From the NCBI GenBank assembly GCA_001443005.1, contig LEKQ01000001.1, positions 594,542 to 658,541 of the forward strand: DNA of 64,000 bases, read 5' to 3'. The position numbers and the translations under genes are program-made. Shown here piece after piece: positions 2,014 through 20,783 of the stretch. The notes below the pieces were generated by a model. It did no database searches and was not told the origin of the DNA. It worked only from the letters and a program-made list of their open reading frames with translations. This DNA comes from a bacterium GBS-1. Its GTDB lineage: Bacteria > Synergistota > GBS-1. Numbering within the stretch: position 1 is the stretch's first letter; the number at the start of each line of letters is the position of its first letter.

Positions 2014-2045
2014 GGCTTCATTCACCCTCCCTAAAAACAAAGGAA

Positions 2046-3358: not shown

Positions 3359-4417
3359 TCACATCCCCACAAGCTTTTTTGCCTCCTCTAAGGCCCTTAA
3401 GGCTCCTTCACCTAATGGTACGCCCTCCTTAAGCCTCTTGCACATGGTCCGATAGCTTCTCTCCCCCGGCAGAAGGATCTCATCCACGCCCTTAGCTCTC
3501 TTAGATCCCTTTATCATCTTTATGTATCCATCCACCTTTTCCTTGAACTCGTCAACCGGCATGAAGCTTTCGACTTTAATAGCCACCATAAAATTACCGA
3601 CGCCCATCGGCTTAGTAAAGTCCAAGAACATGGATTTTATATCTTTACCGTAAGAGGAACCAGTTAAGAGGCCACTTATTATGTCTATCACAATTGACAT
3701 CCCATATCCCTTGGCTCCCCCTAAGGGCAAAAGGGCTCCTTCTAGAGCCTTCTCCGGATCATCCGTGTGGTTTCCTTCATTATCCACAGCCCAACCGAAG
3801 GGGATTTTTTCACCCTTTCTTAAGCTCTCCTCTATCTTCCCTCTGGAAACAACGCTCGTTGACATATCCAAAACGATCGGTATCTCCCTACCTGCTGGTA
3901 TAGCAACTGCAAAGGGGTTCGTCCCTAGTACAGGCTCACAACCACCATGGGGAGCCATTAAAGCAGCTGTGTTAGTTAGAACGATGCCTATCATGTTTTC
4001 TCTCAGGGGCATCATCGCATAGTGACCCGCAATACCGATGTGATTCGTATTTCTAACGCCAGCGATAGCAACATCATTCTCCTTAGCCTTTTCTATACAC
4101 ATGGACATGGCCAGCTTTCCCGCAACCTGGCCAAGGCCATTATCTGCATCGATCAAGATAACGTTTCTTGATTCCCTTATAACCTTTATATTGGGTTTTG
4201 GATTTATAATCCCAAGCCTTATCCTCTTTACATAGGTGGGAAACCTAACTACACCGTGCGATTCTATTCCTCTTAAATCCGCTGCGACTATAGCCTCAGC
4301 TGTGTCAAGCGCATCCTGCTCTGGCACGCTCAAGCGCATCAGTACAGAGGAAAGGATCCCAATTAAATCCTCGTAAGGAACCAAAACCAAGGGAGCGAAA
4401 CCCTCCTTTAGGTTCAC
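3359..4417 (-). CDS. Ldh_2-family (malate/L-lactate/sulfolactate dehydrogenase type 2) oxidoreductase
   Basis: 352 aa with ADLRGIESHGVVRFPTYVKRI and NTNHIGIAGHYA blocks typical of the Ldh_2 family. That family includes ComC (R)-sulfolactate dehydrogenase, AllD and DlgD. Its start overlaps the upstream stop by 4 nt. Confidence 0.8.
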   Translation of the reverse strand: MNLKEGFAPLVLVPYEDLIGILSSVLMRLSVPEQDALDTAEAIVAADLRGIESHGVVRFPTYVKRIRLGIINPKPNIKVIRESRNVILIDADNGLGQVAGKLAMSMCIEKAKENDVAIAGVRNTNHIGIAGHYAMMPLRENMIGIVLTNTAALMAPHGGCEPVLGTNPFAVAIPAGREIPIVLDMSTSVVSRGKIEESLRKGEKIPFGWAVDNEGNHTDDPEKALEGALLPLGGAKGYGMSIVIDIISGLLTGSSYGKDIKSMFLDFTKPMGVGNFMVAIKVESFMPVDEFKEKVDGYIKMIKGSKRAKGVDEILLPGERSYRTMCKRLKEGVPLGEGALRALEEAKKLVGM

Positions 4418-5571
4418 ATCGTCGGACCTATTCTGGTTATCGCGAACTCACCATGACCAAGCTGCTCTGACTTAGTCATCTTTCCATTTATCACAGAAAG
4501 CATTTCCTTTATGATTCTGCGCCCAACCTCTTCAACCGTTTCGATCCCCAGTATTATAGTTCCTGCATTGATATCTATGTTATCGGACATCCTCTCCCAA
4601 GTCTTGGGATTACCAGTAATCTTTATAACCGGAGCAATGGGGCAACCAACGGGTGTTCCCCTTCCCGTGGAAAAGAGAACCAATTGAGCTCCACCTGCCA
4701 CCATGCCGCTCACCGACTGAACATCATGCCCTGGCGTATCCATTATCCACAGCCCTTTGCCCTTAGGCTGCTCCGCATATTCAACCACGCCTTGAATTGG
4801 AGACCTCCCAGCCTTAAGGATGCAACCAAGGGATTTTTCCTCTATCGTCGTTATACCACCTTCAATGTTGCCTCTCGTCGGCTGAGTCCCTCTTAAATCG
4901 ACGCCCATCTTCAAAGCGTCCTCTTCAGCTCTCTTTACGATCTCGTATATACGCTTAGCTACATCTTCGTTAACCGCTCGCTTGGCCAATATGTGCTCCG
5001 CCCCTATAAACTCGGGGGTCTCCGATAATATCGACGTTCCACCCGAGCTAACCACGAAGTCCGAAGCAACTCCCATGGCAGGGTTCGCCGCTATCCCAGA
5101 GGTGGCATCCGAACCACCGCACTCAAGAGCAATCACGATATGGGATAGATCTATGACCTCCCTCACCATCCCAGACAGATCCGAAAGCATGCTCTCAGCT
5201 ATGGCTATCCCCTTATCTATAGCCCTTAAGGTTCCACCTTCTTCCTGAATCACCAGGACCTCGACCTTCTTCCCCGACTCCGATATCCTCTCAGCCAACA
5301 TATAGGGATCGAGCTTCTCGCATCCGAGCCCAACCACCAGAACCGAAGCCACGTTGGGATTCTTACCAACCCCAACAAGGGTCCTCAGGGTTTGCTCATA
5401 GTCAACGCCAAGCTGTCCACATCCCTCATTATGAGTTATAGACACGCTTCCAGGAACACTCTTCGATATGGCTAAGACCACCTCATTGCTACAGACAACG
5501 CTCGAAAGTACAAGAAGGTGGTTTCTAATCCCAACTGAACCATCGGGCCTTATATAACCCCATAGTTTCAT
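4414..5571 (-). CDS. UxaA-family lyase/dehydratase, large (C-terminal-domain) subunit
   Basis: 385 aa. The THNEGCGQ block and overall layout match the C-terminal part of altronate/galactarate dehydratase. The same layout is found in SuyB of sulfolactate sulfo-lyase. It overlaps the small-subunit gene by 4 nt. Confidence 0.78.
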   Translation of the reverse strand: MKLWGYIRPDGSVGIRNHLLVLSSVVCSNEVVLAISKSVPGSVSITHNEGCGQLGVDYEQTLRTLVGVGKNPNVASVLVVGLGCEKLDPYMLAERISESGKKVEVLVIQEEGGTLRAIDKGIAIAESMLSDLSGMVREVIDLSHIVIALECGGSDATSGIAANPAMGVASDFVVSSGGTSILSETPEFIGAEHILAKRAVNEDVAKRIYEIVKRAEEDALKMGVDLRGTQPTRGNIEGGITTIEEKSLGCILKAGRSPIQGVVEYAEQPKGKGLWIMDTPGHDVQSVSGMVAGGAQLVLFSTGRGTPVGCPIAPVIKITGNPKTWERMSDNIDINAGTIILGIETVEEVGRRIIKEMLSVINGKMTKSEQLGHGEFAITRIGPTM

Positions 5572-5876
5572 CTCCCACCACCCTCTCCCTTAAGCAAGTC
5601 GCCTCTTCCCCTATTACTCACAACGTTATGAACATGCACCCAATCCCCAACCTCGATATCTCGCGTAGCCCTACCTATAACCTCACCGTACTTTATGACA
5701 TCGCCATCCTTTGGAATCCTCCTAACGGCAAACTTATGGCCAAAGGGTATGTCCGCGATCACCCTTACCTCCCTAGACTGGTTAGAGATTCTCACTAACG
5801 CTATCTCACCAGCTTGAATGTCTTCAAGAGCTGTAGCCACGTTATCTGCCCCATCAAGTAAAAGAGCCCTTTTCAT
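5568..5876 (-). CDS. UxaA-family small subunit (SAF / N-terminal domain)
   Basis: 102 aa. The DNVATALEDIQAGE...GHKFAVRRIPKGD.IKYGE pattern is typical of the SAF domain that forms the N-terminus of UxaA/GarD, or the separate SuyA subunit. Confidence 0.75.
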   Translation of the reverse strand: MKRALLLDGADNVATALEDIQAGEIALVRISNQSREVRVIADIPFGHKFAVRRIPKDGDVIKYGEVIGRATRDIEVGDWVHVHNVVSNRGRGDLLKGEGGGR

Positions 5877-5891
5877 AAATCAATCACCTTC

Positions 5892-7775
5892 CTATAAAAG
5901 CCAGTCTAACCCTAGCTCGATAAGCTTCCAAGGTTGGGGAACGCCCTCTTCATCCCAACCAGACATAAGGTAATAAATCCTCTTGGCCTCCTCGAACTCC
6001 TCCCTAGTAACGAATCTACCCTCATGGATACCCCCTCGGAGAGGCATGTACATCTTTTCTGCCAATCTATCCTCCTTCGAATCCACTCCACTTCTAACGT
6101 TAAACACCCTCATCATGTTCAGTCTTCTTTCCCCAACCTTCATGAGCTCCCATAGGCTCACTTCCCAACCGGTCACCGCGCTAACGGCTTCGACCACCTC
6201 ACTGTAGTTTAAACCCCTTGTAGGAGCCATGCAAAACATGCATATATCGAGGGAGTTCAACATGCTATAAGCTATCATAGTGTAATAGGCGAACCTAACT
6301 TTTCTACCATCAAGATCGAACCAAGGTAATCTCTCATTGATACCCAAGATAGCTATTCTTTCAAGGTTAACGTCTGGAGCGTCAGGACCTATGCTTGGAT
6401 CATGTTCACTCGCCATGTGATCCGCTCCTATAGGACAAACAGAATAGACCAAAGCAAGGGACCTTTTAACCCTCGGCTCATGAGCGGGATACTCAACCCC
6501 TTTGCATTCAACGGCATACCTCTCCGCGTTTCTCCCTATAGCTTGAGCAGCCCTCCTCGACCCTTCAGCCAGAAGTCTCCCTATACCCTCTTTCTTAACT
6601 ATCTTCTCAATAAGGGGTATTACCACATCCTTGTTACCAAACCTCAACTCAAGCCCATCGGTCTCTTCCTCAGTTAATATTCCGTTCTCATAGCAATCCA
6701 TTGCAAAAGCTATAGTTCCTCCCAGGGATATAGTGTCTATGGTGTACTTATTGCAGAGCTCTATAGCCTTAGAGACGATATAGGGGTCATCCACCCCTAT
6801 GTAGGAACCTAAAGCAGCCATAGATTCATACTCCAGGCTGGTGTACTCTTGATCTATCTCAAATGGTTCTCTCGCTCCAACCAACCTCTTACATCTTACA
6901 GGACAAGCATAACACCCGGTCTTTTTCACATCCATTATGGTCTCTATGAAGTCACCTGCAATCTTATCCACACCATCAAATACCCCGCTTCTCCAGTTAA
7001 AGGTGGGTAGCTGCCCACCTGTGCTGAAGAGCTTGGTGGTTATGGTTGTCCCCCACTGGTGCAATCTAAGCTGACCTGGGTAGCTCTTAAACCTGGAAGC
7101 AAAATCCTTGGCTATCTTTACCAACTTACCTTCATCCTTAAACTGGGGTTTTCTCGTCCCCTTAACCACAATAGCCTTCAGCTTTTTAGAACCCATAACT
7201 GCTCCAAGTCCGCATCTACCATGCATATCATGAATATCACAAGCTATGCTTGCAAACCTAACGAGGTTCTCCCCACCTGGGCCTATTCCAAGAATCCTCA
7301 AGCCCCTTTCTCCTAACTCTTTCTCAACCTCTCTAAGAACATCTGCGTTGTGCTTCCCCCAAAGATGCGAAGCATCTTTGATCTCCACATTTCCATCCTT
7401 AACCCAAAGATAAACGGGTTTTGAAGCCCTTCCTTTAACCACTATCGCGTCCAATCCCGCAGACTTTAAGGCCACACCCCAAAATCCACCGGCCTCGCTA
7501 TCAGCTATACCACCGGTCAACGGAGAGACTGAAACAGCCGAATGCCTTGCGAACCCCGGTAAGGGAGCACCCGTCACCACGCTGGGAGCGAAAACTATCA
7601 CGTTCTCAGGAGAATAGGCATCCGTTCCAGGTTTAACGTACTTCAATACATAATAACTTCCAAGACATCCCCCACCTATATATTTCCTGAAAAAGGCCTC
7701 TCCCGGACTCTCATATTCAACCGCCATATTAGAGAGATCCACATGGGCTATCCTATCCCAAAAGCCATATCCCAC
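5892..7775 (-). CDS. aor: tungsten-type aldehyde:ferredoxin oxidoreductase (AOR family)
   Basis: 627 aa. The N-terminus GYGFWDRIAHVDLS...KYIGGGCLGSYY resembles the AOR N-terminal domain, and GCYACPVRCKR is the [4Fe-4S] Cys motif. The start is a GTG 6 nt behind AAAGGGGTGA. Confidence 0.9.
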   Translation of the reverse strand: MGYGFWDRIAHVDLSNMAVEYESPGEAFFRKYIGGGCLGSYYVLKYVKPGTDAYSPENVIVFAPSVVTGAPLPGFARHSAVSVSPLTGGIADSEAGGFWGVALKSAGLDAIVVKGRASKPVYLWVKDGNVEIKDASHLWGKHNADVLREVEKELGERGLRILGIGPGGENLVRFASIACDIHDMHGRCGLGAVMGSKKLKAIVVKGTRKPQFKDEGKLVKIAKDFASRFKSYPGQLRLHQWGTTITTKLFSTGGQLPTFNWRSGVFDGVDKIAGDFIETIMDVKKTGCYACPVRCKRLVGAREPFEIDQEYTSLEYESMAALGSYIGVDDPYIVSKAIELCNKYTIDTISLGGTIAFAMDCYENGILTEEETDGLELRFGNKDVVIPLIEKIVKKEGIGRLLAEGSRRAAQAIGRNAERYAVECKGVEYPAHEPRVKRSLALVYSVCPIGADHMASEHDPSIGPDAPDVNLERIAILGINERLPWFDLDGRKVRFAYYTMIAYSMLNSLDICMFCMAPTRGLNYSEVVEAVSAVTGWEVSLWELMKVGERRLNMMRVFNVRSGVDSKEDRLAEKMYMPLRGGIHEGRFVTREEFEEAKRIYYLMSGWDEEGVPQPWKLIELGLDWLL

Positions 7776-7810
7776 AATTTATCACCCCTTTTAATGGCTT
7801 TAATATCAAA

Positions 7811-8812
7811 CTACTGAGGCAACCTTCTAATATCCCATATTTCCGGGTTAGCGATATTATCGGGCCTCTCTCCCCTTAATACAGATATGACGTTTTTACA
7901 AACCATTTTCGCCATATTAGAGAGCGTTTCTTCAGTATGGGCTGCCATATGAGGCGTAGCAACAACATTATCTAAAGTTAAAATGGGCTCATCAACGGAT
8001 GGGGGCTCTGGATCGAAAACATCCATACCAGCACCTGCTATGACCCCATCCCTAAGAGCCCTATAAAGTGCCCTTTGATCTATCACCGAACCCCTTGCAG
8101 TGTTAACAATTATAGCGTTTCTCTTCATCATGGAGAGCTCCCTTTCGCCTATGAACTTCTCGTTCTCCTTAGTAGCAGGTATGTGTATCGTTATAAAATC
8201 CGCATTTCTAAGAAGATACTCCAGATCTCCAACAAGCTCAGTATCCTCTAACCCCTCTTGCCTAAGAAGCTCTTCGTTAATATATGGATCATAGCCTATA
8301 ACTTTCATAGAAAAACCATACTTGCATATCCTGGCAACCTTTCTTCCGATGTTGCCTAAACCTATAACTCCAAGGGTCTTTCCTGAAAGCTCAAAGCTCT
8401 TAACCTGAAGCCTATAGTTGTAGTTTCCATAAACCCTAAGCTGAACACCCGCATCCCATATGTGCTTCGCAACCGCCATCATCAGACATACGGTATGCTC
8501 AGCAACCGCATTAGCATTCGAGCCCGGTGCATAAACCACTGGAATGCGGTAGGCATTGGCTGCTTCTAAATCCACGTTATCAACCAAAGCCCCATGTTTA
8601 CCTATGACAACGCATCTTTTAGCGGCTTCGATTATACTTCTACCTATGTAGGGATGAACCCTCACGATTATGCCATCATAATCCATAACCTTTTTCAAGA
8701 GATATTCCTCGTCAAGGCTTTCCGCAACATCAACCTTTATCTCCGCTTCTTCCAACATCTTAACCCCATCTGGGTGAATTTCCTGCATCAAAAGGACCCT
8801 TCTTTCAGCCAT
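7811..8812 (-). CDS. D-isomer-specific 2-hydroxyacid dehydrogenase (glycerate, hydroxypyruvate or phosphoglycerate dehydrogenase-like)
   Basis: NAD fold GVIGLGNIGRKVA, NTARGSVID, and catalytic His in TPHMAAHTEE. I place the start at the ATG at 8812 behind GAGGTGG; the ORF-track start at 8827 is a GTG inside that Shine-Dalgarno sequence. Confidence 0.85.
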   Translation of the reverse strand: MAERRVLLMQEIHPDGVKMLEEAEIKVDVAESLDEEYLLKKVMDYDGIIVRVHPYIGRSIIEAAKRCVVIGKHGALVDNVDLEAANAYRIPVVYAPGSNANAVAEHTVCLMMAVAKHIWDAGVQLRVYGNYNYRLQVKSFELSGKTLGVIGLGNIGRKVARICKYGFSMKVIGYDPYINEELLRQEGLEDTELVGDLEYLLRNADFITIHIPATKENEKFIGERELSMMKRNAIIVNTARGSVIDQRALYRALRDGVIAGAGMDVFDPEPPSVDEPILTLDNVVATPHMAAHTEETLSNMAKMVCKNVISVLRGERPDNIANPEIWDIRRLPQ

Positions 8813-8839
8813 GATACCCCACCTCACGTAAAGGCAGTC

Positions 8840-9703
8840 TTAAAGTACCTTCCTTAAGATCTTCGGAATCTCCGATAGCTTAAAGGCTATCTTAGCTCCA
8901 GCATCCTCTAAAACCCTTAGCTTGCTATCCGCACTTCCCGTTTCCCCTTGTATAATGGCCCCAGCATGCCCCATTCTCTTACCCGGCGGAGCCAGTCTAC
9001 CCGCAATGAAGGCTATGACTGGTTTCCTCATGCGCCTTATAACAGCGCTCGCATCCTCCTCACGGCTTCCTCCTATCTCTCCCACGATAACTACAGCCTC
9101 AGTATCGTTATCCCTATCAAACATTTCCAAGATATCAGCTATGTCTACCCCGGTAACTGGATCAGCTCCAATACCCACAACGCTGCTTTCACCGAAACCC
9201 TCATCGTTAAGATATCCAGAGACCTCATAAGAAAGCGTCCCGCTCCTTGAGATGACCCCTACCTTCCCCGGTTTAAACATATTGCCAGGCATTATCCCAA
9301 GCTTACCTACACCGGGAGAGATTACGCCAGGGGTTGTGGGACCAAGCATTACGACGCCCCTCTTCCTCGCAACCTCCCTCATCTCCATGGCATCAGCTAT
9401 GGGAACATGCTCGGGAATAACTACAACAAGCTTTATACCAGCATCTATAGCTTCAAACACAGCATCCTTCGCAGCAAAGGGTGGAGCAAATATAACCGTA
9501 GCATTAACGCCAAACCTCTCTACCGTCTCCTTAACATCATCAAACACTGGAACACCATATACCGTCTCTCCCTTTCTCCCAGGCGTTACTCCTGCCAAGA
9601 TCTTCGTACCATACTCCAACATCCACCTCGTCTGTATGCTTCCCACCCTACCAGTTATACCCTGGACGATAGCCCTGGTCTCATAAGTTAAAAGTATTGC
9701 CAT
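8840..9703 (-). CDS. sucD: succinate--CoA ligase (ADP-forming) alpha subunit-like
   Basis: 287 aa, collinear with SucD. Blocks QGITGRVG, VISRSGTLSYE and the phosphohistidine loop RMGHAGAII are present. Confidence 0.85.
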   Translation of the reverse strand: MAILLTYETRAIVQGITGRVGSIQTRWMLEYGTKILAGVTPGRKGETVYGVPVFDDVKETVERFGVNATVIFAPPFAAKDAVFEAIDAGIKLVVVIPEHVPIADAMEMREVARKRGVVMLGPTTPGVISPGVGKLGIMPGNMFKPGKVGVISRSGTLSYEVSGYLNDEGFGESSVVGIGADPVTGVDIADILEMFDRDNDTEAVVIVGEIGGSREEDASAVIRRMRKPVIAFIAGRLAPPGKRMGHAGAIIQGETGSADSKLRVLEDAGAKIAFKLSEIPKILRKVL

Positions 9704-9708
9704 AACCT

Positions 9709-10860
9709 TTATCCCCTCTCCTTCTGAGATAAAATCTCCTTAAGCAGATCGATCGCTTTCTCCGTATGGAAAGTTTTTATCAAGTGCACTCCAGCGCTAC
9801 TTAATATCTCCCAGGCCTCTTCCTGTTGATTCCCAACCGCCTTAACCACGATGGGGACATCTTTCGCAAAGCTCTCCCTAGCCTGTTTAACTCCATTAGC
9901 TGCTTCTATAAGGGAGTTCACCCCACCATAAAGATTAATGAGAATTGCCTTTATATTGCCTCTCCTTAAAACGAGCCTTATTGAATCGTTTATGAGCTTA
10001 GCTGTTATTCCACCGCCAGTCTCAAGAAAGTTGGCCGGCCTTAAGCCCTCATCAGCCATCAAATCTACAGTATACATACCCAAGCCCGCACCGCTCGATA
10101 TGAGCCCTATATCTCCATCAAGCACAACATAGGACACACCTATCTCTTTCGCTTCTCTTTCCATATAATCCTCCACGTCGACCTTTTCCAGCTTAGAGAA
10201 ATACTCCTGCCTAAATAAAGCATTATCATCTACTTCTACCTTAGCATCAGCCGCAACGATTCTTCCATCCTTTAAAAGGCATAAAGGATTTATTTCCAAG
10301 ATCGTTAAATCATAGCGAACGAAGGCATCGAACATAGAAGCAGCTATGTGAGAAAGCTTTACCAAAAGCTCCCTCTCAAAGCCCTTTCCCCTCAAAGCTG
10401 ACCTTATCTCATACTCCCTTAAAGCTTCGCTCGGATATTTATCTATTCTCACGAGCCTCTCGGGAAAGAGCTTAACTATCTCCTCTATATCCATGCCACC
10501 GGCATCGCAGAACATGAAGGTACGCTTACCAGATCGCGTATCTATGGTTATCCCCATATATATCTCCCTAGCTATGTCTAAAGCCTCCTCTACAAGGAGC
10601 TTCTTAACTTTAAAACCCCTTATCTCCTTACCAAAAAGCTCAGAAGCAACCTCTTGAGCGGTTTTAGGATCATCCGCAGGCTTAATACCACCCGCCTTAC
10701 CCCTACCACCTATGGGGACCTGTGCCTTAAGCACAACCTTCTTCCCTATCCTCTCGAAAGCGCCGGAAGCTTCCGACGGAGCGCTAATTACTACACCCTC
10801 GGGAACATCTATGCCGATCAGCTTTAAAAAATCCTTCCCCTGATATTCTAAAAGCCTCAT
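9709..10860 (-). CDS. sucC: succinate--CoA ligase (ADP-forming) beta subunit-like (ATP-grasp)
   Basis: Blocks MRLLEYQGKDFL, GGRGKAGGIK, EINPL and NLYGGV are collinear with SucC. I prefer the ATG at 10860 to the ORF-track start at 10893, which overlaps the upstream gene. Confidence 0.85.
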   Translation of the reverse strand: MRLLEYQGKDFLKLIGIDVPEGVVISAPSEASGAFERIGKKVVLKAQVPIGGRGKAGGIKPADDPKTAQEVASELFGKEIRGFKVKKLLVEEALDIAREIYMGITIDTRSGKRTFMFCDAGGMDIEEIVKLFPERLVRIDKYPSEALREYEIRSALRGKGFERELLVKLSHIAASMFDAFVRYDLTILEINPLCLLKDGRIVAADAKVEVDDNALFRQEYFSKLEKVDVEDYMEREAKEIGVSYVVLDGDIGLISSGAGLGMYTVDLMADEGLRPANFLETGGGITAKLINDSIRLVLRRGNIKAILINLYGGVNSLIEAANGVKQARESFAKDVPIVVKAVGNQQEEAWEILSSAGVHLIKTFHTEKAIDLLKEILSQKERG

Positions 10861-10870
10861 CTCTCTTCCC

Positions 10871-11410
10871 TCACCCTTTCTTGAATATATCAAAGGCAGC
10901 CCTTAAGGCTTTTAAGTTTAAATCCCTAGTAGCAGGAGGTACCCTATTAAGCATGGCAGCCTCGAGCGATTCCCTTTTTACTATTCCTGTTAATGAGACC
11001 AAAACCCCCAAAGCCACTATGTTCGCAGATAAAGGCTTACCTGTCTCCCTTATGGATATCTCTGTTATAGGAAGCTCGTATATCTCAACGTCAGAGCGAG
11101 GTTTGACCTCCTTGATATAAAGTGTATCAATGATGATTAATCCTCCCTCTTTGACGCTCTCACCGTATTTATCCAGCGCATCTTGAGTCATAGCAAGTAA
11201 TATATCTGGTCTTTCGATCTCTGGGTAGTTTATCTCCTCATCGCTTATGATGATCTCGGACCTACTTGCACCACCTCTTGCCTCGGGACCATAGGACTGA
11301 TTATGCGTAGCGTTCTTTCCCTCATAAATCACCGCAGCCTCCGCAAGGATAATCCCTGCGAGAACCAGACCTTGACCACCGTAACCGCTTAACACTATCT
11401 CCTTCCTCAT
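10871..11410 (-). CDS. 2-oxoacid:ferredoxin oxidoreductase gamma subunit
   Basis: 179 aa with the SGYGGQGLVLAG block typical of OFOR gamma subunits. It directly abuts the beta-subunit gene (0-nt gap). Confidence 0.88.
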   Translation of the reverse strand: MRKEIVLSGYGGQGLVLAGIILAEAAVIYEGKNATHNQSYGPEARGGASRSEIIISDEEINYPEIERPDILLAMTQDALDKYGESVKEGGLIIIDTLYIKEVKPRSDVEIYELPITEISIRETGKPLSANIVALGVLVSLTGIVKRESLEAAMLNRVPPATRDLNLKALRAAFDIFKKG

Positions 11411-12235
11411 TTAACCTTCCCCACCTTCAGCTAATTTTCGCCTTAACTCCTCATAAAGCTCCGTATACTCTCTCTTCTCCTTATTAACGAAGAGCTCGCC
11501 TATCAAAAACTTATCCTTCATCTCCTCGAGACTATACCTTTGAGCCTGTTGAACTAAAACAGCATGTTCCTTCTGCCACATCAGCATCTCATAAGGAGTT
11601 CTCATCCTATTTCTTCTCCCATAACCTACAGGACATTGAGAGACAACCTCAATGAAGCTAAAGCCCTTATGAGCGATGGCCTTAGCTATAAGATCAGCCG
11701 TTAACTGAATATGATAAACGGTGCTTCTTGCGATGAAGGTCGCTCCTGCCGCCTCAACAAGCTTGCATATGTCGAAGGATGGTTCAATGTTGCCGTAGGG
11801 AGCTGTTGTAGCATAGGTACCTTGAGGGCTTAAAGGGGAATACTGCCCACCTGTCATACCATATATACTGTTGTTTATAAGTATTGTAGTTATGTCTATG
11901 TTCCTTCTAGCAGCGTGGATCAGATGATTTCCCCCTATCGCCGCACCATCGCCGTCTCCCGTAATAACTATCACCTTCATATCGGGACGCATCAACTTAA
12001 AGCCTGTAGCGAAAGCTAAAGTCCTACCGTGAGTCGTTTGAATGGTGTTAAAGTCCACTATCACGTTGGTCCTTGCCGAACAGCCGATCCCGGTGAAAAG
12101 GACGATTTCATCCTTGCTCAACCCAAGCTTATCAACCGCCATGATCAAAGCCCTCACCACTGAACCGTTACCACAGCCCGGACACCATATATGAGGAAGC
12201 TTGCTTAACCTTAGATACTTCTTTATATCAAGCAT
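11411..12235 (-). CDS. 2-oxoacid:ferredoxin oxidoreductase beta (TPP-binding) subunit
   Basis: Blocks WCPGCGNG and ITGDGDGAAIGGNH (TPP/Mg site). The start ATG at 12235 lies within an ATGCTTGA overlap with the alpha stop, behind AAAGAGGTG. The ORF-track start at 12262 is probably too long. Confidence 0.88.
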   Translation of the reverse strand: MLDIKKYLRLSKLPHIWCPGCGNGSVVRALIMAVDKLGLSKDEIVLFTGIGCSARTNVIVDFNTIQTTHGRTLAFATGFKLMRPDMKVIVITGDGDGAAIGGNHLIHAARRNIDITTILINNSIYGMTGGQYSPLSPQGTYATTAPYGNIEPSFDICKLVEAAGATFIARSTVYHIQLTADLIAKAIAHKGFSFIEVVSQCPVGYGRRNRMRTPYEMLMWQKEHAVLVQQAQRYSLEEMKDKFLIGELFVNKEKREYTELYEELRRKLAEGGEG

Positions 12236-13373
12236 GGCTAAACACCTCTTTAATCGCATCAACTATCTCCCAAGGAGATATCATCTTGCCATCAACCCTA
12301 TTAATTCTAACAGCTTTCCTACAAATGCATCTTTCCACCTCTCCTACAAGCTGCCCCATGTTCATCTCAGGCACGACAACAACCTTAGCTCTTTTCGCAT
12401 ACCCCTCTACAACTTCGCCAGGGAAAGGCCAAAGGGTTTGTAACTGCAAAAGCCCAGCTCTTATCCCGCCCTCCCTCAGCATGTTAACTGCATCCTTGGC
12501 AGACCTCGCTGTACACCCATAGGCTACGATAAGCACGTCAGAATCCTCAACCCTATAGGTCTTATAATAAGTTATCTCCTTCCTATAAAACTCTATCTTC
12601 TTGTGAAGTCTCCTTATAAGCTCATTCGCCACCTTATGGTTATATGTTGCTGGGAAGCCCTCCTCATCATGTACATTACTAGTTACGTGATATCTGTACC
12701 CCTTACCGCGATAGGCGAAATCAGGAACACCGTCAGGCCCAGCGGCAAAAGGCTTATATTGCTCAGGCGGCAAGTTAGTAACTCTCCTATTAACTATCCT
12801 TATCCTGCTCGGATCTGGCAAAGTTACCTTCTCCCTTACGTGACCAACCACCGCATCGGAAAGAAGGATCACCGGATTTCTAATGAGCTCAGATATATTA
12901 AAGGCCTCTATAGTTAACTCAAAGGCCTCTTGAACCGTAGCAGGGCATAAGACAACTATAGGATGGTCTCCATGCGTTCCCCACCTCGCCTGCATGACAT
13001 CTCCCTGCGCAGGAAGGGTCGGTAAACCCGTGCTCGGCCCACCCCTTTGCACATCCACTATGACGCAAGGAATGTCAACTATTGTGGCATATCCCAAGTT
13101 CTCCTGCATTAAGGTAAATCCAGGACCACTCGTTGCAGTCATGGCCTTAAAACCAGCCATAGATGCTCCTATAACCGCAGCGATGCTAGCTATCTCATCC
13201 TCCATCTGAATGAATACCCCACCTACCTGAGGCATCCTAAGAGCCATCATCTCGGCTATCTCTGTAGCTGGAGTTATCGGATAACCCGCGAAGAACCTCA
13301 CTCCAGCTAAGATGGCTGCCTCAGCTATAGCCTCATTACCTTGCATGAATCGCACATCCTCCTTAAGGCTCAT
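12228..13373 (-). CDS. 2-oxoacid:ferredoxin oxidoreductase alpha subunit
   Basis: 381 aa with GNEAIAEAAILAGVRFFAGYPITPATEI and the general KorA/PorA layout. It overlaps the delta gene by 4 nt. Confidence 0.88.
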   Translation of the reverse strand: MSLKEDVRFMQGNEAIAEAAILAGVRFFAGYPITPATEIAEMMALRMPQVGGVFIQMEDEIASIAAVIGASMAGFKAMTATSGPGFTLMQENLGYATIVDIPCVIVDVQRGGPSTGLPTLPAQGDVMQARWGTHGDHPIVVLCPATVQEAFELTIEAFNISELIRNPVILLSDAVVGHVREKVTLPDPSRIRIVNRRVTNLPPEQYKPFAAGPDGVPDFAYRGKGYRYHVTSNVHDEEGFPATYNHKVANELIRRLHKKIEFYRKEITYYKTYRVEDSDVLIVAYGCTARSAKDAVNMLREGGIRAGLLQLQTLWPFPGEVVEGYAKRAKVVVVPEMNMGQLVGEVERCICRKAVRINRVDGKMISPWEIVDAIKEVFSHA

Positions 13374-13597
13374 TCCTCTTCCCCCTCCCGCACCTCAACA
13401 GCATAATCAGGACACCTGAGCTCACAGCTTCTACAACCTACACACATCTCCTCGCGCATAACCCTAACCTTACCATCGCTTGTAAACTCAAAAACCTTCT
13501 TAGGGCAAAACTCTACACATATACCACAAGACTTACACCACTTAGTATTCAGAACAACCTTAAACCTCTTAGTCAAGGCAATCACCCCTTCTTTCAA
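13370..13597 (-). CDS. 2-oxoacid:ferredoxin oxidoreductase delta subunit (2x[4Fe-4S] ferredoxin)
   Basis: 75 aa with two CxxCxxCxxxCP motifs, CKSCGICVEFCP and CVGCRSCELRCP. Confidence 0.85.
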   Translation of the reverse strand: MKEGVIALTKRFKVVLNTKWCKSCGICVEFCPKKVFEFTSDGKVRVMREEMCVGCRSCELRCPDYAVEVREGEEE

Positions 13598-13602
13598 AGC
13601 GC

Positions 13603-13803
13603 TTAGCCGCCCGACATGATATATGTAACTACTATCTCGTCACCATCCCTAACTATCCTCGAGCTATACTCCCTCCTGGGCAAGACATCCCTATTCAAGA
13701 ACACAGTCATATAAGAGATATCATAACCAAGCTTCTCTAAAAGCTCCCCCACGGTCATCTCACCTTCCAAATTAACTTCCCTATTATTCACCTTAACAAG
13801 CAT
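13603..13803 (-). CDS. ThiS/MoaD-family ubiquitin-like sulfur-carrier protein ending in Gly-Gly
   Basis: MLVKVNNREVNLEG...GDEIVVTYIMSGG* has the size, N-terminal pattern and C-terminal GG typical of ThiS/MoaD. The start is ambiguous: TTG at 13821, ATG at 13812 or ATG at 13803. I prefer 13803. It ends 5 nt upstream of the OFOR delta gene. Confidence 0.65.
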   Translation of the reverse strand: MLVKVNNREVNLEGEMTVGELLEKLGYDISYMTVFLNRDVLPRREYSSRIVRDGDEIVVTYIMSGG

Positions 13804-13825
13804 CTCCTCCATTTCCTCCAAATAA

Positions 13826-13863
13826 ATTATACTCAGTATACTGTCTACTTCCTAAATCATCAA
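13826..13863 (-). promoter_or_regulatory. candidate internal sigma-70 promoter upstream of the ThiS-like/OFOR genes
   Basis: Read on the minus strand: TTGATG (13863-13858), a 17-nt spacer, then TATACT (13840-13835), followed by a second TATAAT (13831-13826) and GGAGG. It lies in the 75-nt gap after dehydratase no. 2. Confidence 0.35.
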
Positions 13864-13896
13864 GGCCACCCTTAAAAGGTATCTTTGGGTTTTTCT

Positions 13897-15552
13897 TCAC
13901 TCCAGGGATCTTCTAACCGCTCCCTTTGACGCGCTCTCAACGAAAAGCCTATAATATCTCAGGTAGCTGTTTTCAGGTATAAAGGAGCGATTGACCTCCT
14001 GTACCTCTCCTTTTCTCCTTTTATATTCTTCCTCTGATATCAATAGGTCTACCCTCTTCCTCCCGAGGTCTATCCTTATAACATCACCATCCCTAACTAT
14101 GGAGAGCGGTCCTCCTGCCGCCGCCTCAGGGGAAACATAAGCTATAGAGATGCCGTAAGAAGCCCCGCTAAGCCTGCCATCGGTTATGAGTGCAACGTTC
14201 TTATATCTATTTATTATCTCAACACACCTATGAAGCTCCCTCATGCCCGGACCTCCACAAGGCCCCTCGTATCTTATGATGATAACCTCCCCATCCTTAA
14301 GGTCATTGCTTGATGCATACTCCATAAACTCATCCTCCGAGTTAAATACCCTAGCTACCCCTTCAAAGGGATCCTTCAAAACGTCCACCAGCGCAGACAC
14401 CTTAAGCAGGGCTCCATCAGGAGCAAGGTTTCCTCTCAAGACTTTTATAGCTCCACCCTTAGCTATGGGGTCGGAAACCGATCTTATGATTGACTTCAAA
14501 GGCCTGAATCCCTCACTCTTCCCAATGATATCCCTCCAGGTATCGTTAAGGACCGTCTTTCTATCAAGGTTAAGATAATCCTTTAGTTCTCTTATCAATG
14601 CAACCACTCCGCCAGAAAAATACAGATCTATAACGGTATTCTCGTCGCTATTGGGAGTAACTTGAGCAATCAGGGGAACACTCTCGCTTATCCTCTCAAA
14701 ATCCTCCATGCTTATCTCTATCCTTAGCTCATGAGCTATGGCAGGAATGTGAAGAACAGCGTTTAGAGAACCACCTATAGCCATAACTACAGCTATTGCA
14801 TCCTCAAAAGCTTCCCTCGTCATTATCGCCGAAGGTTTCAAGCCCATCTCTATTAAGCGAACAGCTTGCTCTCCGGTTAATCTAGCTAAGTTATATCTCT
14901 GACTTGTTCCCGCTGGAGTTAAAGCTGACCCTGGCAATCCCACACCCAAAACCTCAGCTACTATACACATGGTATTTGCCGTTCCCAAAAATGGGCAAAC
15001 ACCTGGACCAGGATAATACCTCTCCGTGATGTCAAGCAGCTCATCCTCGGAGACCTTACCCTCAAGAAAGCTCCTTCTCGCCATCTTGGACTCCTTAGGC
15101 TTGATATAGTTGCACATCGGTCCTGCTCCCAACCAAATAGAGGGAAGGTCTATCCTAGCCATAGCCATAAGCATACCAGGGACGATCTTGTCGCAGGAGG
15201 AGAGAAAAACCAAACCATCGAATATATCGTGTCCCTTCACCATAGATTCTATCGAATCAGCGATCAACTCCCTGCTTGGGAGGCTATATTTCATGCCCTT
15301 ATGCCCCTGAGCTATACCATCGCATATAGCTATCGTGTTGAACTCGATTGGAACTCCACCAGCCTTGTAAACCCCTTCTTTTACCTTCTCGGCCAGGTCT
15401 CTTAAAGGGACATGCCCAGGGACTATTTCGTTCCAAGAGTTGACTATACCTACTATGGGCTTGTTAAGATCCGCTCGGGAAAAACCACAAGAAATTAGAT
15501 GCCCCTTTATAAGCTGTCTAACGTAGTTCGGAAAAGCACTCAATCGGTTCAT
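13897..15552 (-). CDS. IlvD/Edd-family Fe-S dehydratase no. 2 (sugar-acid dehydratase candidate)
   Basis: 551 aa with [44 protein letters not shown] and TDGRLSGAS blocks. Confidence 0.88.
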   Translation of the reverse strand: MNRLSAFPNYVRQLIKGHLISCGFSRADLNKPIVGIVNSWNEIVPGHVPLRDLAEKVKEGVYKAGGVPIEFNTIAICDGIAQGHKGMKYSLPSRELIADSIESMVKGHDIFDGLVFLSSCDKIVPGMLMAMARIDLPSIWLGAGPMCNYIKPKESKMARRSFLEGKVSEDELLDITERYYPGPGVCPFLGTANTMCIVAEVLGVGLPGSALTPAGTSQRYNLARLTGEQAVRLIEMGLKPSAIMTREAFEDAIAVVMAIGGSLNAVLHIPAIAHELRIEISMEDFERISESVPLIAQVTPNSDENTVIDLYFSGGVVALIRELKDYLNLDRKTVLNDTWRDIIGKSEGFRPLKSIIRSVSDPIAKGGAIKVLRGNLAPDGALLKVSALVDVLKDPFEGVARVFNSEDEFMEYASSNDLKDGEVIIIRYEGPCGGPGMRELHRCVEIINRYKNVALITDGRLSGASYGISIAYVSPEAAAGGPLSIVRDGDVIRIDLGRKRVDLLISEEEYKRRKGEVQEVNRSFIPENSYLRYYRLFVESASKGAVRRSLE

Positions 15553-15588
15553 TCAAGATCAACTCCCTCCATGAAGCGAAAATGGCTT

Positions 15589-16479
15589 TCATAGCAAACC
15601 AAGCCTCCTTAAGCCCTCTTTTATCTTTTCCCTTACCTCTTCGCTCGCTGGTCTGAAGGGTTCTCTCGGATACATCTTTATCCCGCGTAGGTTAACCATG
15701 GTATAAGCTCCTACGGTAGTGGTATTAGCGAGCCTCATAAGGTCTCTAACGGCCATCACCCTATTGTGAACCTCTATCACCTTATCCTTAGGGGCACCGC
15801 TCATCACCACATCATAAAGCTCCTTACAAAGCTCTGGAAAAGCGTTACCCAACCCTGGAATAAAGGCTTTGATGCCCAAAGAGGACGCAGGAACAAACAG
15901 AGCCTCGGTTCCTAAAACCACATCGAAGCCTTCTTTTTCTACCTTTCTCTTGAAATCCGATAGGACCATCAAATCGAAGCTACTATCCTTAACACCATGC
16001 ACACCTATATCCGCCAACCTCTTAAGCAAGCCCACGCTAACGGCATACCCGACAGTTTTGGGATTGTTATAAACATAAACAGGCACATTAACTGCATCAA
16101 CGATTCTTTTGAAATAAAATAAGACATCCTCCTCGGCATGATGATAGTAGAAAGGAGGAACCGCTGAAACAGCATCAGCACCTATCTCCTCAGCGTGTTT
16201 AGCGAGCTCAACAGCATCCCTCGTGCTTATGCTTCCCACATGAACAATAACCGGGACCCTCCCCCCGACCTCCTTCACAATTATCTCCGCAACCCTCTTT
16301 CTCTCCTCGAGGCTAAGCAAAGGTCCGCAGCCATAGGTCCCAAGGATGAAAAGGCCATCCACCGTCCCTAAAAGGAAGCTCGTAAAATCCCTCAAAGCTC
16401 CCTCATCTATATCGCCGTTTGCATCGAAGGGAACGATCATCGGCGGAATTACCCCTCTCAACTGGGTGATACCCATCAA
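15589..16479 (-). CDS. DapA/NAL-superfamily class I aldolase or dehydratase (KD(P)G-aldolase-like)
   Basis: 296 aa. It has LGTYGCGPLLSLEERK where DapA has GTTGE; as I recall, archaeal KD(P)G aldolases read GTTGLGP.LS at this position. The Schiff-base Lys lies in HGVKDSS. Confidence 0.8.
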   Translation of the reverse strand: MMGITQLRGVIPPMIVPFDANGDIDEGALRDFTSFLLGTVDGLFILGTYGCGPLLSLEERKRVAEIIVKEVGGRVPVIVHVGSISTRDAVELAKHAEEIGADAVSAVPPFYYHHAEEDVLFYFKRIVDAVNVPVYVYNNPKTVGYAVSVGLLKRLADIGVHGVKDSSFDLMVLSDFKRKVEKEGFDVVLGTEALFVPASSLGIKAFIPGLGNAFPELCKELYDVVMSGAPKDKVIEVHNRVMAVRDLMRLANTTTVGAYTMVNLRGIKMYPREPFRPASEEVREKIKEGLRRLGLL

Positions 16480-18028: not shown

Positions 18029-18043
18029 CTCAAGCTTTAAGAA

Positions 18044-20276: not shown

Positions 20277-20300
20277 CTCGATCCCTCCTCAAAGCAGAAC

Positions 20301-20783
20301 TTAGGGCAACCTCACTCCAAGTAAATGTCCAAATGAGTACATCAAGCTCAAACTCACCAAAAGAGCGATCCCGATCGCGACGTGTAGCTTGACACTTTTA
20401 AAGTAAAGATAGGACCCAACTAGATAGAGAAAAGTCGCCAAAGTATAGGGTATCTTCCCCAAAAGAGCAACATAGGCGACCGTTAAAGCTATAAAGACGA
20501 CGAGCCTTTGTGTCTTGAGTCTCTCCTCCCTGCTTCCCTCATTTCTCCCCTTTGACTCCGAGAGGCTCCAACCTTTAAGGTTTCTTTTAAAGATAAACAA
20601 GAGGTAAAACATAAGCGCAGCTGAAAGAACCATAAGAATTGCCGATAAAACTGCGGGGGTAAGACCTGGGGAGTCATGAGGGTCTCCAGTAGGCATCTTT
20701 AGGGATTCAAACAAGCCATAAGCACCGATCAGGAAAACGAAAAGGGCAATCGCAAACTCCCACCACCATCTCTTCCTATCCAT
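20301..20783 (-). CDS. tctB: TTT small membrane subunit TctB, copy 1
   Basis: 160 aa with about 4 hydrophobic helices, positioned between tctC and tctA. Confidence 0.7.
   Translation of the reverse strand: MDRKRWWWEFAIALFVFLIGAYGLFESLKMPTGDPHDSPGLTPAVLSAILMVLSAALMFYLLFIFKRNLKGWSLSESKGRNEGSREERLKTQRLVVFIALTVAYVALLGKIPYTLATFLYLVGSYLYFKSVKLHVAIGIALLVSLSLMYSFGHLLGVRLP

Follow-up and report, generated by a model that had tools for sequence, protein, structure and literature searches.

The window analysed here is a stretch of 64,000 nucleotides from the bacterium GBS-1 (GTDB lineage Bacteria; Synergistota; GBS-1; GenBank assembly GCA_001443005.1, contig LEKQ01000001.1, positions 594,542 to 658,541 of the forward strand). 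It carries one tightly packed block of genes on the minus strand, about 23 kb long and reaching from about 349 to 23109 (all coordinates are window coordinates). The account of this block that we favour, and to which we give an even chance, is that of a composite operon. A part for the cleavage of sugar acids would be joined to a conserved module for ferredoxin reduction and substrate-level phosphorylation, and the substrates would be carboxylates imported by a transporter of the tripartite tricarboxylate type (TTT). Gene content, family assignments, motif signatures and an association of genes that crosses phyla are the observations on which this account is built.

Genes were assigned from Pfam and NCBIfam profile scores, and the NCBIfam equivalog cutoffs served as the threshold for a specific name. 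In transcription order, the first half of the block encodes an iron-type alcohol dehydrogenase (Fe-ADH), TctC, TctB, TctA, a short-chain dehydrogenase (SDR), an FGGY kinase, a DapA/NAL-family protein, an IlvD/Edd paralogue, a ThiS-like protein and the delta, alpha, beta and gamma subunits of a 2-oxoacid:ferredoxin oxidoreductase (OFOR). The second half encodes a SucC-like protein, SucD, a D-isomer-specific 2-hydroxyacid dehydrogenase (2-HADH), an aldehyde:ferredoxin oxidoreductase (AOR), the SAF and catalytic parts of a UxaA-family dehydratase, an Ldh_2-family dehydrogenase, LarA and a second IlvD. Neighbouring genes overlap or are 0-75 nt apart, and we infer that the block is a single operon. 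A scan for promoter and terminator consensus sequences found terminator-like sites no more often than expected from shuffled sequence; it neither split nor confirmed the operon and left its boundaries undefined. A sequence-only reading of 4414-16479 had named gene families that were all found where it placed them, and both ends of that range are gene ends. The cluster continues outside it, downstream with Ldh_2, LarA and the second IlvD (349-4417) and upstream with the FGGY kinase, SDR, TctABC and Fe-ADH (16499-23109). Inside that range, the splitting of UxaA, the OFOR delta subunit, the ThiS-like open reading frame (ORF) and the 2-HADH between SucD and AOR had gone unmentioned.

The CoA ligase of the cluster consists of a SucD-type alpha subunit (8840..9703, minus strand) and a variant SucC-like ATP-grasp beta subunit (9709..10893, minus strand), whose true start is likely Met12 at coordinate 10860. 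SucD passes both of its models (TIGR01019, 378 bits against a cutoff of 353; NF004230, 370 against 336), and its translation contains GKRMGHAGAIIQG, the MGHAGAII phosphohistidine loop that had been reported before. It departs from the usual sequence in GPTTPG for GPNCPG and in GRVG for GREG. SucC stays below both NCBIfam SucC cutoffs (NF001913, 358 against 370 bits; TIGR01016, 342 against 376). It scores 291 bits with the beta subunit of Thermus succinyl-CoA synthetase (SCS; 3UFX), 117 bits with citryl-CoA synthetase (6HXQ) and 282 bits with the malate--CoA ligase beta model (cutoff 604). When aligned with the SCS beta subunits of E. coli, Thermus and Francisella (E. coli numbering), three glycine loops of its C-terminal domain are altered: VNGAGLAM 263-270 is replaced by SSGAGLGM, with Ser for Asn264, FLDVGGGAT 286-294 by FLETGGGIT, and NIFGGIVRC 317-325 by NLYGGVNSL. 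In a structure of pig SCS with succinate, beta Asn271 and Gly327/328 reportedly contact the succinate, and we take these to be E. coli Asn264 and Gly320/321; in ATP-citrate lyase, citrate is bound by the homologous loops. The pair had been called canonical, which holds for SucD; it does not hold for SucC, which misses both cutoffs and has three variant active-site loops.

The Ser form is carried by all 120 of the best database homologues (44-100% identity; the best 120 of 7,891 scored). The variant loops are absent from the E. coli, Thermus and Francisella enzymes and from 41 metagenome loci of canonical type. The partner SucDs of variant SucC also differ systematically, with G(K/R)(V/I)G for GREG and altered residues after GHAGAII. 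Judged by these alignments, the variant SucC is a large subfamily and not the quirk of one lineage. Its source names are inconsistent: succinate--CoA ligase beta, acetate--CoA ligase family protein and ATP-grasp domain protein all occur.

A metagenome scan with an alignment of the variant SucC yielded 80 loci of variant and canonical type, and those with at least 6 kb of flanking sequence were used for an association test. A Kor-type OFOR, AOR, 2-HADH, LarA or Ldh_2 gene is found near 17 of 18 variant loci, compared with 2 of 33 canonical loci (Fisher p = 2e-10). The Kor-type OFOR lies upstream of SucCD in 9/16 variant and 1/32 canonical loci, and AOR neighbours the variant SucCD in 11/18 loci, as does 2-HADH. 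The set of AOR, OFOR and SucCD recurs in Anaerolineae (L001, L002), in Desulfobulbaceae (L003) and in the metagenome loci L047 and L050, often with Fe-ADH, 2-HADH and a ThiS-like ORF; in L001, a thiamine diphosphate (ThDP) enzyme is encoded between AOR and OFOR. A metagenome-assembled genome (MAG) of Bacillota (L018) and the cultured Gelria sp. Kuro-4 share the order OFOR delta-alpha-beta-gamma, SucCD, a TAXI-type TRAP transporter, LarA, SAF, UxaA, a second LarA and 2-HADH, and neither AOR nor DHDPS is present in that cluster. In both, the transporter and LarA-UxaA-2HADH follow directly after SucD in the same orientation. Two further loci (L030, L034) lack an OFOR and have a LarA gene immediately upstream of the variant SucCD, and GlcD/GlcF-like, RraA-like and FAH genes recur in variant loci. 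This recurring co-occurrence indicates that OFOR and ligase are functionally tied to LarA, 2-HADH and the split UxaA, and that the tie to AOR is looser. No description of the cluster or of the variant SucCD subfamily was found in the searchable literature, and the publication on Gelria Kuro-4 is a genome announcement only. All parts belong to known families; the recurrent combination and the unassigned ligase subfamily are new.

The OFOR has four subunits of the Kor/Oor type (10871..13597, minus strand): delta 13370-13597, alpha 12228-13373, beta 11411-12262 and gamma 10871-11410, recognised by the Pfam families POR_N, PFOR_II, TPP_enzyme_C and POR. Delta is a ferredoxin subunit with two Cys motifs. 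Alpha passes NF006412 (563 bits against 411), beta reaches 325 bits on the model PRK09628 for the beta subunit of 2-oxoglutarate (2-ketoglutarate):ferredoxin oxidoreductase (KGOR; cutoff 364), and gamma scores 221 bits against an equivalog cutoff of 235. Among structures, alpha matches P. furiosus 1YD7 best (449 bits), followed by H. pylori OorDABC 8YS5 (295 bits; PMC12307629) and the M. marinus 2-oxoglutarate oxidoreductase OGOR 6N2N (244 bits); beta scores 275 bits with OorB and 167 bits with OGOR. The other classes score far lower, with 68 bits for pyruvate:ferredoxin oxidoreductase (POR) and 56 bits for oxalate oxidoreductase (OOR), and the NCBIfam VorB, PorA and IOR models are much lower as well. 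The motifs YPITP and GIGCSAR and the ThDP motif are present. GIGCSAR of beta aligns with GIGCSGR of OorB and GIGCSSR of OGOR, which places an Arg at the position of Lys49b in the Sulfolobus enzyme StOFOR1. StOFOR1 needs Lys49b to act on 2-oxoglutarate, though not on pyruvate; 2-oxoglutarate activity is lost in the K49bI mutant, and the pyruvate-specific enzyme of D. africanus has Ile there (PMC5020499). The OFOR had been proposed to be of KGOR type, a proposal that grouping with pyruvate or ketoisovalerate enzymes was to speak against; no such grouping occurred, and the enzyme sides with the 2-oxoglutarate enzymes in clade, in scores and in the Arg at the distal-carboxylate position. From these features we expect a 2-oxoacid with a distal anionic group, either 2-oxoglutarate or a close analogue such as a hydroxylated one; the Arg is not diagnostic of 2-oxoglutarate itself. 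The OFOR betas linked to variant SucCD in L003 (8537-9367) and L031 have Trp instead of Arg at this position (GIGCS[SA]W), which suggests a non-dicarboxylic 2-oxoacid for the module in some lineages.

This arrangement resembles H. pylori OorDABC and the KGOR plus SCS of Thermococcales in the delta-alpha-beta-gamma order, the YPITP motif, the distal-carboxylate Arg and the phosphohistidine ligase immediately downstream. It differs from them in a beta subunit below the KGOR-beta cutoff and in the ligase loops (Ser for Asn264, TGGGI for VGGGA, YGGVNS for FGGIVR), and the module accompanies LarA, 2-HADH and AOR rather than TCA-cycle genes.

The AOR (5892..7775, minus strand) belongs to the tungstopterin family and is of the AOR sensu stricto type, with full-length matches to AFOR_N (241 bits) and AFOR_C (375 bits). 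It scores 368 bits with P. furiosus AOR (1AOR), 277 with FOR and 221 with WOR5. It is thus closest to the broad-range P. furiosus AOR, and its metal may be W or Mo. A tungsten AOR in the place of an aldehyde dehydrogenase (ALDH) had been claimed. An AFOR-family protein of this type is indeed present and 349-33268 encodes no ALDH-superfamily (PF00171) protein, as had been noted. The AOR had also been placed beside the OFOR and SucCD; all of these genes are present, but the 2-HADH and SucCD genes separate AOR from OFOR. Aerobic clusters on Priestia and Sulfitobacter plasmids, described below, carry gucD or an ALDH gene, which makes a substitution of AOR for ALDH reasonable. A ThiS/MoaD-like protein of 72 aa (13603..13821, minus strand), whose translation ends in YIMSGG, is encoded between the IlvD paralogue and OFOR delta; the Pfam ThiS match is recorded on source contigs. 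A ThiS-like ORF comes after SucD in five unrelated loci with AOR, OFOR and SucCD (L001, L045, L047, L050, L061). The protein may serve the tungsten cofactor as a carrier of MoaD type, or it could have another role.

Three enzymes for 2-hydroxyacids accompany the module. LarA (2046..3329, minus strand; Pfam Lar_N and LarA_C) is a nickel-pincer racemase/epimerase with the signature of malate racemases, that is, of enzymes for dicarboxylates. It scores 401 bits on the malate racemase LarAH6 model NF052593 (cutoff 500) and 244 bits with the structure of Mar2 (6D6Z). Aligned to L. plantarum LarA (5HUQ), it has L, F, H and K at the positions of F175, F176, W358 and T359. The catalytic His108 and His174 and Lys184, which binds the nickel-pincer nucleotide, are kept, and GEHKA aligns to both 5HUQ and Mar2. 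In malate racemases, H or Q and then K stand at the W358 and T359 positions, and the second carboxylate is bound by this Lys; the four residues are F-F-W-(E/Q) in lactate racemases and Y-F-(H/Q)-T in 2-hydroxyglutarate racemases (PMC11770544). Malate racemases also epimerise tartrate, and the 2-hydroxyglutarate racemase LarAH32 epimerises pentarates (PMC11770544). The window LarA thus shares the catalytic His and Lys and the H-K specificity pair with Mar1/Mar2 and LarAH62. It differs from them in its score below the malate racemase cutoff (401 against 500), and malate, tartrate or a longer aldarate may be what it acts on. At the same two positions, H-R is found in the LarAs that adjoin variant SucCD in L030 and L034. 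The Ldh_2-family dehydrogenase (3359..4417, minus strand) is of the malate/L-sulfolactate dehydrogenase type; its nearest structures are P. horikoshii malate dehydrogenase 1V9N (296 bits) and M. jannaschii L-sulfolactate dehydrogenase 2X06 (288 bits), and its best NCBIfam match is L-sulfolactate dehydrogenase (329 bits, cutoff 500). The 2-HADH (7811..8827, minus strand; Pfam 2-Hacid_dh and 2-Hacid_dh_C) resembles phosphoglycerate dehydrogenase and glyoxylate reductase and reaches no NCBIfam equivalog cutoff. The LarA signature, the LarAs of L030 and L034 and the affinity of Ldh_2 point to a C4/C5 2-hydroxy-dicarboxylate, or an isosteric sulfonate, as a probable intermediate, which the sequence-only reading did not predict.

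Two candidate explanations around LarA were rejected. Because Gelria Kuro-4 was isolated from a polylactate digester, a route from lactate through pyruvate and acetyl-CoA to acetate was considered; LarA has no F-F-W signature, and the OFOR beta has the distal-carboxylate Arg. Also dropped was the idea that the LarA-like gene beside a plasmid-borne split UxaA encodes LarAH62, the malate racemase of S. termitida; the plasmid protein has no BLAST similarity to the window LarA. Highly divergent proteins with a "lactate racemase domain" do lie directly beside UxaA-family dehydratase genes on Sporomusa termitida pSPTER (L019 8335-9618), together with TctCBA and an enolase-superfamily gene, and on a Sulfitobacter plasmid (L020 7225-8538). 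Neither shows BLAST similarity to the window LarA; here an epimerase-like protein seems to have been paired with a UxaA dehydratase independently, for a second time.

The UxaA/GarD-family dehydratase (4414..5876, minus strand) has two subunits, a small SAF subunit (5568-5876) and a large catalytic subunit (4414-5571); the Pfam matches are SAF, GD_AH_second and GD_AH_C, with PF04295 and PF20629 on the large subunit. Its assignment to GarD was not borne out. The gene is split, the GarD equivalog TIGR03248 gives 253 bits against a cutoff of 731, the GarD structure 6U7L gives 222 bits, and the large subunit shares about 35% identity with annotated GarDs, 43% with the UxaA of E. coli and 50-62% with the split homologues of a broad clade found in Firmicutes, haloarchaea and Enterobacteria. 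The closest cultured members, 55-59% identical, are those of C. hydrogenoformans (L011 9702-14873) and an E. albertii plasmid (L016 8657-13324). In both, a minimal module consists of split UxaA, a KdgT-family permease and a sigma-54 activator, to which Carboxydothermus adds a DUF1537 kinase and a PdxA-like dehydrogenase. The split form also occurs in a haloarchaeal sugar-acid island (Haloferax enolase/Gfo clusters) and on a Priestia plasmid with gucD (2-oxoglutarate-semialdehyde dehydrogenase), two FAH genes, a DHDPS protein and an MFS transporter. The Sulfitobacter plasmid carries a more distant fused UxaA with an IlvD-type AraD, a KdgD-like DHDPS protein, an ALDH, an HpcH aldolase and RraA. 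A literature search for the split clade found nothing useful. With its small SAF and large catalytic subunit the window enzyme resembles the (2R)-sulfolactate sulfo-lyase SuyAB and the modules of KdgT, split UxaA and sigma-54 activator in Enterobacteria and Carboxydothermus; compared with SuyAB, the window has no sulfur-handling genes, and the closest split-UxaA clade has no characterised member.

The DapA/NAL-family class I enzyme (15589..16479, minus strand) aligns over the full length of the Pfam profile DHDPS (PF00701). On NCBIfam models it scores 156 bits for NanA (cutoff 281), 151 for DapA, 150 for the archaeal 2-keto-3-deoxy-(phospho)gluconate (KD(P)G) aldolase (cutoff 390), and 78 and 74 for the KdgD models (cutoffs 374 and 278). 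It is thus below the equivalog cutoffs of the characterised aldolases that were scored (archaeal KD(P)G aldolase, NanA). The translation contains GTYGCGPLLS, GVKDSS with the Schiff-base Lys and VYNNP with the catalytic Tyr; Lys and Tyr are necessary but not sufficient for an aldolase, as they occur in dehydratase members too. GTYGCGPLLS resembles GTTGLGPSLS, which we take to be the motif of the archaeal 2-keto-3-deoxygluconate aldolase. No KdgD or KdaD structure is among the best 60 PDB matches. Homologues with 51-53% identity adjoin the 2-keto-3-deoxygalactonate (KDGal) kinase gene DGOK in all three loci inspected (L022, L023, L024); two of these also carry an IlvD/Edd gene. Genes for 2-HADH, SDR and Fe-ADH are nearby, and an AOR gene is found in one. 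One DGOK-adjacent homologue repeats the profile-score ranking of the window protein. The AraD-linked DHDPS protein of Sulfitobacter, in contrast, ranks the KdgD models first (138 and 116 bits) and is only 27% identical to the window protein over a partial alignment. The role of a semialdehyde-forming enzyme of the KdgD/KdaD type, which had been proposed for the window protein, does not agree with KdgD models that rank last and homologues that pair with a KDGal kinase. Because of this ranking and these DgoK-paired homologues, the protein is most likely a predicted 2-keto-3-deoxy-(phospho)aldonate aldolase.

The IlvD/Edd paralogue (13897..15552, minus strand; Pfam ILVD_EDD_N/C) scores 584 bits on the dihydroxy-acid dehydratase (DHAD) model (cutoff 644) and lies below all sugar-acid dehydratase cutoffs. 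Its nearest structures are DHADs, followed by L-arabinonate dehydratase, and it is a probable sugar-acid dehydratase. The two IlvDs of the cluster are 44% identical to each other, and the second (349..2094, minus strand) passes the DHAD equivalog NF002068 with 789 bits against a cutoff of 644. The second IlvD occupies the same terminal position in the relative L013, and Gelria has a copy of 67% identity some 5 kb away from its core cluster, with genes for a GntR regulator and an SSF transporter next to it. The longest ORF of the window's second IlvD, of 581 aa with a TTG start, shares 49 nt (2046-2094) with the end of LarA, and metagenome gene calls give 554 aa; the true start is probably internal.

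The remaining genes of the cluster lie upstream. Fe-ADH (21955..23109, minus strand; Pfam Fe-ADH and ADH_Fe_C), the probable first gene, resembles FucO and lactaldehyde reductase (353 bits on the NCBIfam lactaldehyde reductase model, cutoff 523), and Fe-ADH genes recur in the related AOR-OFOR-SucCD loci L001, L003 and L050. Tripartite tricarboxylate-type uptake is encoded by TctC (20870-21877; PF03401), TctB (20301-20783; PF07331) and TctA (18795-20276; PF01970), all on the minus strand at 18795..21877. The SDR (18044..18802, minus strand; Pfam adh_short_C2) is similar to gluconate-5-dehydrogenase and KduD and scores 250 bits on PRK08213 (cutoff 279). The FGGY-family sugar or sugar-acid kinase (16499..18028, minus strand; FGGY_N and FGGY_C) is gluconokinase-like but no equivalog (TIGR01314, 389 bits against 649), and FGGY genes recur in the variant-SucCD loci L001, L031, L037, L071, L073 and L076.

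Put together, these assignments suggest the following scheme, in which we infer every substrate and every direction of flux. The first part (TctCBA, SDR, FGGY kinase, DapA-family enzyme and IlvD/Edd paralogue) would convert a sugar acid to a 2-keto-3-deoxy acid and split the latter by aldol cleavage into pyruvate and an aldehyde. Its logic would be of the Entner-Doudoroff or Dahms type, with no second dehydration of the Weimberg type. The second part would be the module of ThiS-like protein, Kor/Oor-type OFOR, variant SucCD, 2-HADH and tungsten AOR, joined here and in Gelria to the split UxaA and a LarA of the malate racemase type, and here also to an Ldh_2 of the malate dehydrogenase type. 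AOR would oxidise the aldehyde to the acid and reduce ferredoxin. 2-Hydroxy or 2,3-dihydroxy dicarboxylic acids would become a dicarboxylic 2-oxoacid, either through inversion by LarA followed by dehydrogenation or through a UxaA-type dehydration. The OFOR would carry out the oxidative decarboxylation of 2-oxoglutarate or a close analogue with a distal anionic group to an acyl-CoA, and the variant SucCD would turn the thioester into ATP via the phosphohistidine. The nearest known systems for the first part are the archaeal non-phosphorylative or branched Entner-Doudoroff pathways and the bacterial Dahms/DeLey-Doudoroff pathways, which likewise have a dehydratase, a DapA-family aldolase-like protein and a ferredoxin-dependent AOR; the likeness extends to the DapA homologues, which pair with KDGal kinase, IlvD/Edd, SDR and AOR. 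The window differs from these systems in the archaeal KD(P)G aldolase score (150 against 390 bits), an FGGY kinase in place of DgoK/KdgK, no glycerate kinase, a bacterial host and TTT uptake.

Several points weigh against this composite operon. No enzyme of the cluster reaches an equivalog cutoff for a specific sugar-acid or hydroxy-dicarboxylate reaction. The homologues behind the aldolase assignment are only about 52% identical, DgoK is missing from the window, where the FGGY kinase occupies its place, and we know of no FGGY kinase that acts on 2-keto-3-deoxy acids. On an aldolase route AOR would yield glycerate or glycolate, a monocarboxylate with no obvious feed to an OFOR for distal anions; the two parts may therefore serve different substrates and be merely co-regulated. 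The second IlvD could be a housekeeping enzyme of branched-chain amino-acid synthesis. The metagenome loci of the association test are not phylogenetically independent.

The alternative proposed by the sequence-only reading is a ferredoxin-dependent variant of the Weimberg-type pathways, which we consider unlikely. UxaA and IlvD enzymes would dehydrate hexarates or pentonates, the DapA-family enzyme would yield 2-oxoglutarate semialdehyde, and AOR, OFOR and SucCD would lead from there through 2-oxoglutarate and succinyl-CoA to succinate and ATP. The presence of three dehydratase families and the lack of an ALDH fit this proposal, as do the aerobic analogue clusters in which 2-oxoglutarate-semialdehyde dehydrogenase or another ALDH stands in the place of AOR. 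The Kor/Oor-type OFOR with its distal-carboxylate Arg, the SucD alpha subunit that passes the SCS model in a phosphohistidine-type ligase directly after the OFOR, and the DHDPS gene directly upstream of IlvD/Edd, like the AraD-DHDPS pair of Sulfitobacter, fit it as well. The window also resembles the known Weimberg and hexarate systems (A. brasilense AraC/AraD/AraE; B. subtilis ycbCDFH; KdgD plus 2-oxoglutarate-semialdehyde dehydrogenase) in clustering UxaA, IlvD/Edd and DapA genes with an aldehyde oxidiser. However, its DapA enzyme is not of the KdgD/KdaD type, ranks KdgD last and is only 27% identical to the AraD-linked protein, while closer homologues pair with KDGal kinase. The split UxaA is no GarD equivalog and its large subunit is no nearer to GarD (35%) than to UxaA (43%), and SucC has Ser for Asn264 and altered GGGA and GGIVR loops. 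AOR stands for ALDH, and the window adds OFOR, CoA ligase, LarA, Ldh_2, 2-HADH and FGGY kinase. The core of Gelria (OFOR-SucCD-LarA-UxaA-2HADH) lacks AOR and DHDPS in the cluster, and the proposal has no role for LarA, Ldh_2, 2-HADH, FGGY kinase and SDR, so that a third of the conserved genes is ignored. Its tail of AOR, Kor-type OFOR and phosphohistidine ligase fits; the KdgD-type DapA step, GarD and the canonical SucC do not.

A second alternative, which we rate as rather doubtful, is a hydroxy-dicarboxylate route. The OFOR would convert 4-hydroxy-2-oxoglutarate to malyl-CoA, the variant SucCD would be an ATP-forming malate thiokinase, and LarA with Ldh_2 or 2-HADH would process D- and L-malate. 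The 2-oxoacid could arise through LarA epimerisation and then UxaA dehydration (pentarate to 4-hydroxy-2-oxoglutarate, or tartrate to oxaloacetate), or from an aldolase that joins glyoxylate and pyruvate. Such a reading would jointly explain the OFOR, the ligase loops, LarA, Ldh_2, the dehydratase and the transporters. The malate racemase-type LarA (H-K) and the malate dehydrogenase-type Ldh_2 adjoin the module, LarA homologues epimerise tartrate and pentarates (PMC11770544), and the OFOR keeps its distal-carboxylate Arg. The H-R LarAs upstream of variant SucCD in L030 and L034, where OFOR is lacking, tie the ligase itself to a 2-hydroxy-dicarboxylate. The ligase loops gain an Asn and lose the canonical one, GlcD/GlcF-like, RraA-like and FAH genes occur in variant loci, the transporters are of di-/tricarboxylate type and the dehydratase is of aldarate type. 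The variant ligase further shares the two-subunit ATP-grasp and CoA-binding architecture with malate thiokinase MtkAB, citryl-CoA synthetase CcsAB and ATP-citrate lyase, and its changes in substrate loops are of the kind that distinguishes these paralogues. Its context points to a hydroxy-dicarboxylate, but it is an orthologue of none of the three (282 bits against 604 for malate--CoA ligase; 117 bits for 6HXQ), and the malate--CoA ligase beta model scores below the SCS models (282 against 358 bits). The cluster also lacks a malyl-CoA lyase and any enzyme dedicated to malate consumption, the argument is one of motifs, and we know of no characterised enzyme of such chemistry.

Compared with the composite operon, a chance juxtaposition is improbable. 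The OFOR and SucCD would then be a central branch between 2-oxoglutarate and succinate, for glutamate fermentation or reductive 2-oxoglutarate synthesis, that came to lie inside a sugar-acid island by chance. SucCD commonly follows a Kor-type OFOR, and Synergistota and Gelria are known fermenters of amino acids and glutamate. An aminotransferase gene precedes the OFOR in L018, and many variant SucCs are named succinate--CoA ligase by their sources. Against this stand the neighbourhood counts for variant and canonical SucC (17/18 loci against 2/33), the same-strand transporter and LarA-UxaA-2HADH genes directly after SucD in Gelria and L018, and the gene order kept between relatives.

Catabolism of organosulfonates, with a SuyAB-type UxaA pair, a ComC-type Ldh_2, a LarA that racemises sulfolactate, an AOR acting on sulfolactaldehyde from a dehydratase and an aldolase of the sulfo-Entner-Doudoroff type, and OFOR and ligase acting on sulfopyruvate and sulfoacetyl-CoA, has very little chance of being correct: it could draw on the SAF plus catalytic two-subunit architecture, which is that of SuyAB and is shown by the window pair, on Ldh_2 (L-sulfolactate dehydrogenase 329 bits, cutoff 500; 2X06 288 bits), on TTT systems, which include the sulfolactate importer SlcHFG, on the ThDP enzyme between AOR and OFOR in L001 and on a ComB-like 2-phosphosulfolactate phosphatase gene just past the window start, but the 64-kb window has no sulfite exporter (TauE/SafE) or sulfite reductase, ComB is missing at that position in the 78%-identity relative L013, the nearest split UxaAs stand in sugar-acid contexts (Priestia gucD/FAH; Haloferax enolase/Gfo) or with KdgT permeases, and the sulfo-Entner-Doudoroff pathway needs no FGGY kinase.

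The host is a thermophilic, Synergistota-like anaerobe. Contigs from 77 °C sediment of Great Boiling Spring and from cellulolytic-enrichment metagenomes encode identical proteins. The closest named relative of the whole cluster is the Synergistetes MAG GCA_025060595.1 (L106), with proteins 54-90% identical, mostly 65-82%; its genes follow in the same order, TctABC included, except that DctPQM is inserted between Ldh_2 and LarA. The second relative (L013) keeps the order from DHDPS through the second IlvD. In both, the block order is kept at 72-80% identity. A scan of contigs of representative genomes with the window SucC found only relatives of 34-41% identity.

All genes in the first 33 kb of the window (1-33300) are on the minus strand, and the GC skew is -0.17 to -0.32 throughout, which fits a position on the lagging-strand side as presented, with strong co-orientation of genes and replication. 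Upstream of the cluster, 23326-29096 (minus strand) contains a second complete TctABC, then an ORF of 157 aa without Pfam match (26524-26997), then a pair of UPF0261 and PEP-hydrolase-like genes. A TAXI-type TRAP transporter is encoded at 33393-36370 (plus strand) by an NMT1_3 binding protein and a fused DctQM; these are 33% and 46% identical to the TAXI-TRAP proteins between SucD and LarA in the core cluster of Gelria sp. Kuro-4. The rest of the window consists of housekeeping genes (RpoD, DnaG, GlyQS, PPDK, H+-PPase, GlnA). On the source contig (L005 19361-20864), just past window position 1 and after the second IlvD, lie the gene of the ComB-like 2-phosphosulfolactate phosphatase (PF04029) and then that of a 2-thiouracil desulfurase/DUF1722 protein; neither is kept at that place in L013.

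If the composite operon is real, strict anaerobes would gain ferredoxin-reducing AOR and OFOR steps on sugar acids or hydroxy-dicarboxylates, with the thioester recovered as ATP. This would be an energy advantage for fermenters and syntrophs in hot habitats rich in organic acids. Should the hydroxy-dicarboxylate route be the true one, it would amount to a widespread anaerobic route for aldarates, tartrate or glyoxylate in Synergistota, Bacillota, Chloroflexota and Desulfobacterota, and to a previously unrecognised phosphorylation pair. The core cluster is experimentally accessible in the cultured Gelria sp. Kuro-4, where it occupies about 1.295-1.309 Mb of AP024619.1. Identifying the acid substrate of the variant SucC would correct many annotations and might reveal a new reaction of substrate-level phosphorylation.

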